Positions 55,897 through 58,621 of a stretch of 64,000 nucleotides of DNA are shown piece by piece (within the stretch, counting starts at the first letter, position 1; each line of letters opens with the position of its first letter). Below the pieces are notes generated by a model. It was not told the DNA's origin and did no database searches. It worked only from the letters and a program-made list of their open reading frames with translations. The position numbers and the translations under genes were made by a program. Source of the stretch: Escherichia coli (GTDB taxonomy: Bacteria; Pseudomonadota; Gammaproteobacteria; Enterobacterales; Enterobacteriaceae); NCBI RefSeq assembly GCF_045037415.1, contig NZ_CP173438.1. One strand, written 5' to 3'.

Positions 55897-56913
55897 ATGG
55901 CCGTTAACTTACTGAAAAAGAACTCACTCGTGCTGGTCGCTTCTCTGCTGCTGGCGGGCCATGTACAGGCAACGGAACTGCTGAACAGTTCTTATGACGT
56001 CTCGCGCGAGCTGTTTGCCGCCCTGAACCCGCCGTTTGAACAGCAATGGGCCAAAGATAACGGCGGCGACAAACTGACGATAAAACAATCTCATGCCGGG
56101 TCATCAAAACAGGCGCTGGCGATTTTGCAGGGCTTAAAAGCCGACGTTGTCACTTATAACCAGGTGACAGACGTGCAGATCCTGCACGACAAAGGCAAGC
56201 TTATTCCGGCTGACTGGCAGTCGCGTCTGCCAAACAACAGCTCGCCGTTCTACTCCACCATGGGCTTCCTGGTGCGTAAGGGTAACCCGAAGAATATCCA
56301 CGACTGGAACGATCTGGTGCGCTCCGACGTGAAGCTGATTTTTCCGAACCCGAAAACCTCCGGTAACGCGCGTTACACCTATTTAGCCGCGTGGGGTGCA
56401 GCGGATAAAGCCGACGGTGGCGATAAAGCCAAAACCGAACAGTTTATGACCCAGTTCCTGAAAAACGTTGAAGTGTTCGATACTGGCGGTCGTGGCGCGA
56501 CCACCACTTTTGCCGAGCGCGGCCTGGGCGATGTGCTGATCAGCTTCGAGTCGGAAGTGAACAACATCCGTAAACAGTATGAAGCGCAGGGCTTTGAAGT
56601 GGTGATTCCGAAAACCAACATTCTGGCGGAATTCCCGGTGGCGTGGGTGGATAAAAACGTACAGGCCAACGGCACGGAAAAAGCGGCAAAAGCCTACCTG
56701 AACTGGCTCTACAGCCCGCAGGCGCAAACCATCATCACCGACTATTACTACCGCGTAAATAACCCGGAAGTCATGGGCAAACTGAAAGATAAATTCCCGC
56801 AGACCGAGCTGTTCCGCGTGGAAGATAAATTTGGCTCCTGGCCGGAAGTGATGAAAACCCACTTCACCAGCGGCGGCGAGTTAGACAAGCTGTTAGCGGC
56901 GGGGCGTAAGTAA
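55897..56913 (+). CDS. cysP: Thiosulfate-binding periplasmic protein CysP
   Basis: 338 aa with signal peptide, [25 protein letters not shown]. Confidence 0.97.
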
Positions 56914-57746
56914 TGTTTGCAGTTTCTTCAAGACGCGTGCTGCCGGGCTTTACCTTAAGCCTCGGCACCAGTCTGCTGTTTGTGTGCCTGATTTTGCTGC
57001 TGCCGCTCTCCGCGCTGGTGATGCAACTGGCCCAGATGAGCTGGGCGCAGTACTGGGAGGTGATCACCAACCCGCAGGTGGTCGCAGCCTATAAAGTGAC
57101 GCTGCTGTCGGCGTTTGTGGCATCGATTTTTAACGGCGTTTTCGGTCTGCTGATGGCGTGGATCTTAACCCGCTATCGCTTTCCGGGTCGCACGCTGCTT
57201 GATGCGCTGATGGATTTACCCTTTGCGCTGCCAACGGCAGTCGCCGGTTTAACGCTGGCCTCGCTCTTTTCCGTGAACGGTTTTTACGGTGAATGGCTGG
57301 CGAAGTTTGATATCAAAGTCACCTATACCTGGCTGGGGATTGCGGTGGCGATGGCCTTTACCAGCATTCCGTTTGTGGTGCGCACCGTGCAGCCGGTGCT
57401 GGAAGAGTTAGGCCCGGAATATGAAGAGGCGGCAGAAACGCTCGGCGCAACACGCTGGCAGAGTTTTCGCAAAGTGGTGCTGCCGGAACTATCTCCGGCA
57501 CTGGTGGCGGGTGTGGCGCTGTCGTTTACCCGCAGCCTCGGTGAGTTTGGCGCGGTGATTTTTATCGCCGGGAATATCGCCTGGAAAACAGAAGTGACGT
57601 CGCTGATGATCTTTGTTCGCTTACAGGAGTTTGATTACCCGGCGGCGAGCGCGATTGCCTCGGTGATCCTCGCGGCATCGCTGCTGTTGCTGTTCTCAAT
57701 TAACACTCTGCAAAGTCGCTTTGGTCGGCGTGTGGTAGGTCATTAA
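56913..57746 (+). CDS. cysU: Sulfate/thiosulfate ABC transporter permease CysU (CysT)
   Basis: 277 aa; start shares one nucleotide with cysP stop. Confidence 0.97.
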   Translation: MFAVSSRRVLPGFTLSLGTSLLFVCLILLLPLSALVMQLAQMSWAQYWEVITNPQVVAAYKVTLLSAFVASIFNGVFGLLMAWILTRYRFPGRTLLDALMDLPFALPTAVAGLTLASLFSVNGFYGEWLAKFDIKVTYTWLGIAVAMAFTSIPFVVRTVQPVLEELGPEYEEAAETLGATRWQSFRKVVLPELSPALVAGVALSFTRSLGEFGAVIFIAGNIAWKTEVTSLMIFVRLQEFDYPAASAIASVILAASLLLLFSINTLQSRFGRRVVGH

Positions 57747-58621
57747 TGGCGGAAGTGACACAATTGAAGCGTTATGACGCGCGCCCGATTAACTGGGGCA
57801 AATGGTTTCTGATTGGCATCGGGATGCTGGTATCGGCGTTCATCCTGCTGGTGCCGATGATTTATATCTTCGTACAGGCGTTCAGCAAAGGACTGATGCC
57901 GGTGTTACAAAATCTGGCCGATCCGGACATGCTGCACGCCATCTGGCTGACGGTGATGATCGCGCTGATTGCCGTACCGGTAAACCTGGTGTTCGGCATT
58001 CTGCTGGCCTGGCTGGTGACGCGCTTTAACTTCCCCGGACGCCAGCTATTGCTGACGCTGCTGGACATTCCGTTTGCCGTGTCGCCGGTGGTTGCTGGTC
58101 TGGTGTATCTGCTGTTCTACGGCTCTAACGGCCCGCTGGGCGGCTGGCTGGATGAACATAATCTGCAAATTATGTTCTCCTGGCCGGGTATGGTGCTGGT
58201 CACCATCTTCGTGACGTGTCCGTTTGTGGTGCGCGAACTGGTACCGGTAATGTTAAGTCAGGGCAGCCAGGAAGACGAAGCGGCGATTTTACTTGGCGCG
58301 TCCGGCTGGCAGATGTTCCGTCGCGTCACGCTGCCGAACATCCGCTGGGCGCTGCTTTACGGCGTGGTGCTGACCAACGCCCGCGCGATTGGCGAGTTTG
58401 GCGCGGTATCGGTGGTTTCCGGCTCGATTCGTGGCGAAACCCTGTCGCTGCCGTTACAGATTGAATTGCTGGAGCAGGACTACAACACCGTCGGCTCCTT
58501 TACCGCCGCCGCGTTGTTGACGCTGATGGCGATTATCACCCTGTTTTTAAAGAGTATGTTGCAGTGGCGCCTGGAAAATCAGGAAAAACGCGCGCAGCAG
58601 GAGGAACATCATGAGCATTGA
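57746..58621 (+). CDS. cysW: Sulfate/thiosulfate ABC transporter permease CysW
   Basis: 291 aa; start shares one nucleotide with cysU stop. Confidence 0.97.

Follow-up and report, generated by a model that had tools for sequence, protein, structure and literature searches.

Overlapping stop and start codons in the cysPUWAM and eut operons of Escherichia coli: annotated operon junctions that may not all work alike

The eight stop/start overlaps in the cysPUWAM and eut operons studied here are most likely ordinary operon junctions, already annotated and with correctly placed starts, and they do not appear to work all alike; we put the probability of this reading at about 0.85. The junctions lie in a window of 64,000 nt, which is the whole stretch of DNA analysed and represents a segment of the E. 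coli chromosome from purN to ptsI. Its gene order is purN ... maeB, eutSPQTDMNEJGHABCLKR, hemF, amiA, ypeA, yfeZYX, murPQ, ucpA, cysPUWAM, yfeK, pdxK, crr, ptsI. Positions 55000-61000 occur in 5,425 of 5,426 complete E. coli genomes, at 100% identity in many of them, and window positions 30001-64000 differ from NZ_CP032265.1 by 5 mismatches in 34 kb. The K-12 genes yfeW, murR and yfeS are absent near these operons in the window's strain.

Overlapping junctions in the two operons

The order cysP-cysU(T)-cysW-cysA-cysM, the PGAP names and the coordinate pattern agree with b2421-b2425 of MG1655 and identify the cysPUWAM operon, and the 17 eut genes, in the order of the EUT1 ethanolamine-utilisation operon, are about 97% identical to those of K-12. 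From what is established about the cysPUWAM and eut operons, the two genes at each of these junctions would share one polycistronic transcript, and the gaps there are too short for promoters or terminators. Junction lengths were obtained by translating each annotated CDS from the window and were compared with the PGAP annotation of the near-identical NZ_CP032265.1 and with the curated K-12 MG1655 record. SD motifs were scored by their complementarity to the 16S 3' tail in kcal/mol. The features are as follows, with overlaps given as negative spacings.

32797..47682, + strand: complete 17-gene eut operon eutSPQTDMNEJGHABCLKR, all ORFs intact (PGAP annotation of the matching genome and ORF check)
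33599..33624, + strand: eutP/eutQ overlap of 26 nt, eutQ start GTG; SD AGGAGGA, -10.3 kcal/mol
34297..34300, + strand: eutQ/eutT junction ATGA (-4); no SD (-2.6 kcal/mol), single candidate start codon
35097..35100, + strand: eutT/eutD junction ATGA (-4); SD GGGGGAA, -8.4 kcal/mol
39091..39101, + strand: eutJ/eutG overlap of 11 nt, ATGCAAAATGA; SD GGAGGGG, -10.0 kcal/mol
41718..41721, + strand: eutH/eutA junction GTGA (-4); SD GGAGG, -9.5 kcal/mol
55897..59708, + strand: cysP-cysU(cysT)-cysW-cysA, sulfate/thiosulfate ABC transporter genes (PGAP and K-12 annotation, ORFs checked)
56911..56915, + strand: cysP/cysU junction TAATG (-1), the cysP stop TAA and the cysU ATG sharing base 56913; SD -6.2 kcal/mol
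57744..57748, + strand: cysU/cysW junction TAATG (-1), shared base 57746; SD GGTAGGT, -6.7 kcal/mol
58611..58621, + strand: cysW/cysA overlap of 11 nt, ATGAGCATTGA; SD AGGAGGA within the cysW coding sequence, -10.3 kcal/mol
59843-60754: cysM, after a gap of 134 nt from cysA

The eight overlaps that the original prediction had listed are present in the translated CDSs at exactly the lengths it gave (cysP/cysU -1, cysU/cysW -1, cysW/cysA -11, eutP/eutQ -26, eutQ/eutT -4, eutT/eutD -4, eutJ/eutG -11 and eutH/eutA -4), and both PGAP (NZ_CP032265.1) and K-12 MG1655 give the same eight junctions. The span 56913-58621, to which all of them had been assigned, takes in only cysU and cysW; the eut junctions are located elsewhere, at 33599-41721, about 15-25 kb upstream. 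Overlaps had also been said to occur throughout the eut operon. Five of its 16 internal junctions do overlap; at the remaining 11 the genes are separated by +9 to +216 nt, and six of these spacings fall at +9 to +12, a spacing that forms a small peak specific to E. coli (PMC10666635). At seven of the eight overlapping starts an SD motif lies inside the upstream gene (-6.2 to -10.3 kcal/mol), and the exception is eutT (-2.6 kcal/mol), the only start among the eight without an SD.

By annotation count, the window has 44 pairs of same-strand neighbours, of which 11 overlap and 10 (23%) have spacings of -8 to +6. The genome-wide figure for E. coli at these spacings is 707 of 2,987 same-strand pairs (24%; PMC10666635), and among prokaryotes in general the share of co-directional pairs that overlap is about 15% (PMC6728339). 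The overlap frequency in the window is no above-chance signal; it is the geometry that is conserved. Three further overlaps in the window, missing from the original list, are found at ypeA/yfeZ (-14, 50086-50099), purM/purN (-1) and gcvR/bcp (-1). At none of the junctions did an Rfam scan of the whole window find an RNA element; the sole Rfam match in the window is the REP-derived naRNA4 in the gap between eutG and eutH. Predicted RNA accessibility did not separate the two kinds of start either, with opening energies of 5.5-11.9 kcal/mol at overlapping and 3.2-20.1 kcal/mol at non-overlapping starts.

Junction geometry in related genera

The cys geometry of -1/-1/-11 is the same in E. coli, Salmonella, Klebsiella, Serratia and Proteus, the CysW of Proteus being 70% identical. 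Outside Enterobacterales the spacings are +23, +10 and +4 in Salinivibrio and +1 and -4 in Ralstonia; they are +8, -11 and +10 in Rhizobium, +3, +1 and +13 in Ponticoccus and +1, +3 and -43 in Cereibacter, where for the distant (alpha-proteobacterial) loci the deposited annotations were used and automatic start picking is noisy. The cysW/cysA spacing itself is -4 in Ralstonia, +4 in Salinivibrio and +10 to +13 in Rhizobium and Ponticoccus. For the eut operon, 55 loci found with EutQ (tblastn) were compared. Among related loci, eutT/eutD is at -4 or -11 in 47 of 48, eutJ/eutG at -11 in 33 of 42 and eutH/eutA at -4 in 32 of 41, and in eutT, eutD, eutG and eutA the start codon and the N-terminal peptide likewise align across genera.

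At eutP/eutQ, the tail of eutP (EKTHHSE and its stop codon) runs into codons 1-9 of eutQ. Relative to the eutQ start, the eutP stop is found at +12 in Morganella and Pluralibacter, at -4 in Buttiauxella and Pseudomonas, at -23 in Salmonella, Citrobacter and Klebsiella, and at -26 in Escherichia. The eutQ start, on the other hand, is fixed. In 50+ loci, as distant as Pseudomonas and Xenophilus, MKKLITAN(D) and a GGAGG-type SD align at one and the same eutQ start codon. Nearly all loci match EutQ from residue 1 onwards in tblastn, and the eutQ frame upstream of the start codon is interrupted by stop codons in several genera. Because the eutQ start is fixed and the eutP stop varies, the overlap is a C-terminal read-in of EutP; as the aligned loci show, the eutP stop has moved downstream into eutQ and the eutQ start has not moved. 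An apparent in-frame EutP-EutQ fusion in Morganella (junction at about -765) was rejected as a script artefact, since eutP ends at 9988 and eutQ starts at 10001 in that locus (L039). Experiments with full-length EutQ (1-229) have shown a functional N-terminal region, whose helices H1/H2 bind the shell; codons 1-9 were retained in the EutQ deletions explicitly because of the eutP overlap (PMC12487888).

Protein abundances bear on how eutQ is translated. In E. coli W3110 grown with ethanolamine and B12, iBAQ values relative to EutQ (100) are 7 +/- 1 for EutP, 10 +/- 3 for EutD and 7 +/- 1 for EutG (PMC11334477). Since iBAQ abundance mirrors protein stability and detectability besides synthesis, the ratio of EutQ to EutP is indirect evidence. 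EutQ is thus about 14-fold above the upstream EutP, and reinitiation alone is insufficient to account for this unless the stability of the two proteins differs greatly. Therefore ribosomes probably initiate on eutQ, with its strong SD and GTG start at -26, mainly independently and from its own SD, a mode that we infer from the protein abundances. Classic coupling is the wrong description of the eutP/eutQ junction.

The eutQ/eutT junction differs from the others. It is at -4 in 17 loci (Escherichia, Salmonella, Klebsiella and a few others), with SD scores of -1.5 to -2.6 kcal/mol, and at +4 to +12 in Citrobacter, Buttiauxella, Morganella, Pseudomonas and Xenophilus, with scores of -5.2 to -9.2 kcal/mol; the genera are related, and this association between spacing and SD may mirror only one or two evolutionary events. 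The spacer of the spaced genera reads ...TGA GG(C/G)G..., which includes a GAGG SD, and in the alignment the stop-GAGG spacer is missing from the -4 genera. Independent initiation at eutT in the window is hard to explain because it has no SD and no alternative start. As judged from the sequence, no gene here is a better candidate for obligatory reinitiation than eutT, whose translation would depend, with a low yield, on the heavy translation of eutQ. EutT is induced and detected in E. coli W3110, yet it is outside the abundant Eut proteins (PMC11334477). A tentative scenario, to which we give somewhat less than even weight, is that a small deletion removed the eutQ-eutT stop-SD spacer in Escherichia, Salmonella and Klebsiella and that the adenosyltransferase gene eutT would now be strictly dependent on low-efficiency reinitiation from eutQ, whose product is the most heavily made Eut protein. 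The overlap would then be a built-in step-down that keeps EutT low and in proportion to EutQ; under this scenario the eutP stop would also have slid 23-26 nt into eutQ without affecting the independent initiation of eutQ.

The variation among genera could also be explained if the overlaps were neutral by-products of compact operons, produced by stop drift and spacer deletion, with an SD of its own at each start and no translational effect. The wandering eutP stop (+12, -4, -23, -26), the -4 and +4 to +12 states of eutQ/eutT among related genera, and the many cys spacings outside Enterobacterales all agree with this explanation, as do the SDs at seven of the eight starts and an overlap frequency equal to the genome background. 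It has difficulty, however, with eutT, which has neither an SD nor an alternative start. Moreover, the exact -1/-1/-11 and -4/-11 geometries outlast protein divergence to 62-70% identity, and experiments on other native E. coli pairs at -4 have revealed real coupling. We consider a purely neutral origin of all eight overlaps unlikely.

Translational coupling and the assignment of start codons

The original prediction had called all of the overlaps classic translational-coupling arrangements. Spacings of -4 and -1 are the commonest, the contribution of the SD to coupling varies, and coupling fades within about 20-40 nt of spacing and faster with growing overlap (PMC6728339, PMC10666635, PMC12548453); in a synthetic series it is absent at -25 (PMC12548453). 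Spacings of -8 to +10 have been treated as predictive of termination-reinitiation (PMC10666635). Four of five native E. coli pairs at -4 are coupled by termination-reinitiation, and bioBF is not, despite its geometry (Huber et al., PMC6728339). The fact that bioBF is uncoupled at -4 indicates that geometry alone is not decisive. In the searchable literature, we found no direct coupling experiment on the particular junctions described here. When the spacings for reinitiation (-4/-1, or broadly -8 to +10) are applied to the window, cysP/cysU, cysU/cysW, eutQ/eutT, eutT/eutD and eutH/eutA fall inside, and cysW/cysA, eutJ/eutG and eutP/eutQ fall outside. The description as classic coupling arrangements thus suits the former five, since experiments in E. 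coli have demonstrated that -1 and -4 spacings support termination-reinitiation; it is weaker at the two -11 junctions and does not hold at eutP/eutQ (-26).

At cysP/cysU and cysU/cysW (-1) and at eutT/eutD and eutH/eutA (-4), the terminating ribosome would be situated on the next start codon, with the SD in the upstream coding sequence, and coupling at these four junctions is plausible from their layout. At cysW/cysA and eutJ/eutG (-11, strong SD), translation of the downstream gene probably begins partly by independent initiation and partly with help from the upstream ribosome. CysU, CysW and CysA form one transporter complex, and coupling along cysU-cysW-cysA would suit the subunits of one ABC transporter complex.

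A more uniform explanation is that all eight overlaps are one kind of coupling device, in which reinitiation fixes protein ratios along both operons. The -4 and -1 spacings are the classic ones for termination-reinitiation, coupling was seen in four of the five native E. coli pairs examined, the genes for complex subunits are rich in overlaps and the geometry is kept across genera. Nevertheless, protein ratios in the eut operon do not follow from such a device, as EutQ is about 14 times EutP, and EutD and EutG are 10-fold below EutQ. Coupling also decays with longer overlap and is absent at -25, whereas three junctions here are at -11 or -26, and the strong SDs at eutQ, eutG, cysA and eutA allow independent initiation. 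The uniform explanation is less likely still than the neutral one, and eight overlaps with differing modes of initiation remain our preferred reading.

The overlaps had further been taken to argue that the annotated starts are correct. This reasoning goes in a circle, as the lengths of the overlaps follow from the very starts in question, which are nonetheless well supported by independent evidence. In-frame alternatives at the overlapping genes are lacking, or are without an SD or with a very poor one: the next in-frame start of cysU is a GTG at +24 (-0.7 kcal/mol, no SD), that of eutQ an ATG at +60 (-2.1 kcal/mol), and eutG has an upstream in-frame GTG at 39064 (-27; -1.5 kcal/mol, no SD) that gives a longer ORF. 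Gene-start prediction is generally the least reliable part of annotation, and eutQ and eutA use GTG as start codon, so one might suppose that some overlaps are annotation artefacts with true starts downstream (eutQ ATG +60) or upstream (eutG GTG -27), which would make the overlaps shorter or longer or remove them; yet these alternative codons have no SD, the start codon and first residues are conserved in 50+ loci with stops upstream in the eutQ frame in several genera, EutQ 1-229 has a functional N-terminal region and the K-12 coordinates are identical, and we regard artefacts as very improbable. From the SDs, the scarce alternatives, the N-termini conserved across genera and the K-12 coordinates, the annotated starts of the overlapping genes are correct.

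Relation to known systems and implications

The cysP/cysU, cysU/cysW, eutT/eutD and eutH/eutA junctions resemble the tested E. coli termination-reinitiation pairs (2019 and 2023; reviewed by Brown & Wade 2025) in being co-directional, in their ATGA/GTGA or TAATG sequences and in having an SD in the upstream CDS. The resemblance here is one of geometry, and three junctions (-11, -11 and -26) lie outside the predictive range of -8 to +10. Unlike the tested pairs, four of five of which needed an SD, eutQ/eutT has none. The cysU, cysW and cysA genes encode subunits of one complex, and such subunits are the class enriched for termination-reinitiation overlaps. Short overlaps are enriched 4.5-fold in the subunits of heteromeric complexes (PMC10666635). 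The eutP/eutQ overlap can be compared with MS2 coat/lysis (-50; RNA unfolding or back-scanning), as ribosomes finishing eutP cross the eutQ SD and start before terminating. However, eutQ has a strong and well-spaced SD and its product is about 14-fold over EutP, so that it behaves as independently initiated and not as termination-gated. When the window is set beside the K-12 cysPUWAM operon and the EUT1 locus (Salmonella LT2 / E. coli), it agrees with MG1655 in the order and lengths of the genes and in all junction coordinates; the difference is that the eut operon of the window is uninterrupted, with no CPZ-55 prophage between eutA and eutB.

Curated annotation already contains these junctions, and as a class they belong with the short-overlap gene pairs, which are well described. 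They are of little importance in themselves, as such stop/start overlaps occur at about one quarter of same-strand E. coli gene pairs. What may be mildly new lies only in the comparison, namely the spaced and SD-bearing eutQ/eutT junction versus the SD-less ATGA among related genera, and the drift of the eutP stop into eutQ. The excess of EutQ over EutP despite their overlap is a caution that overlap length alone is no proof of translational coupling. When these operons are edited, as by deletions, tags or refactoring of the eut microcompartment, the embedded SDs and shared codons must be kept, and of all the genes, eutT is the one whose expression is most likely to be lost when translation of eutQ is impaired. 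If the scenario of a lost eutQ-eutT spacer is true, it would document how a single junction has switched in nature between independent and coupled initiation, although no new mechanism.

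Further overlapping junctions

Besides the eight stop/start overlaps of cysPUWA and the eut operon in the original prediction, three further overlaps, absent from that list, are present in the window:

about 188, same strand: purM/purN overlap, 1 nt
about 8170, same strand: gcvR/bcp overlap, 1 nt
50086-50099, same strand: ypeA/yfeZ overlap, 14 nt

Differences from K-12 and a near-identical genome

Several intervals of the window are shorter than their counterparts in E. coli K-12 MG1655. Between yfeX and murP (window 52218-52259 and 52255-52341), ~1.4 kb of K-12 DNA with yfeW (PBP4B) is missing, and the sole feature that PGAP places there is a pseudogene fragment of 87 nt, labelled as a partial "hypothetical protein". 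The murQ-ucpA interval (window 54758-54806) lacks ~0.9 kb of K-12 DNA containing murR, the regulator of murQP, and no murR is annotated between murQ and ucpA in the matching genome NZ_CP032265.1. The ucpA-cysP spacer (window 55781-55784) is ~143 nt shorter than in K-12. At window 60754-60760, yfeS (K-12 b2420) and its flanks are missing (~0.96 kb); cysM and yfeK are convergent, and their ends are separated by 2 nt.

In addition, ypfG (DUF1176; window 25842-26886) carries one extra A at window 26329 compared with the otherwise identical NZ_CP032265.1. Because of this extra A, the single 347-aa ORF of NZ_CP032265.1 is split into two ORFs in the window (25842-26408 and 26296-26886). The split may be genuine, making ypfG a frameshift pseudogene, or it may stem from a sequencing error in the source of the window.

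Spacing and start-region structure in the eut operon

The eutA/eutB junction (window 43121-43133) has an 11-nt gap, and the eut operon is without interruption. In K-12 MG1655, by contrast, the 6.8-kb cryptic prophage CPZ-55, which the window lacks, lies between eutA and eutB (K-12 2558691-2565480).

In the 216-nt eutG-eutH gap (window 40279-40494), an Rfam scan found a REP-derived naRNA4 at 40333-40414 (RF02564, 75.5 bits), and the gap contains an internal repeat of ~88 nt. Gap size varies widely in related loci, from 27 to 474 nt, a spread that differing numbers of REP elements would be expected to produce.

The predicted start-region opening energy is lowest for eutM (window 36152; 3.2 kcal/mol) and high for eutN (window 36552; 12.3 kcal/mol), and the published abundances relative to EutQ = 100 are 96 for EutM and 1 for EutN (W3110 on ethanolamine and B12; PMC11334477). 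These values, from only a handful of genes, hint that Eut protein ratios may be set by local RNA structure rather than by junction spacing.
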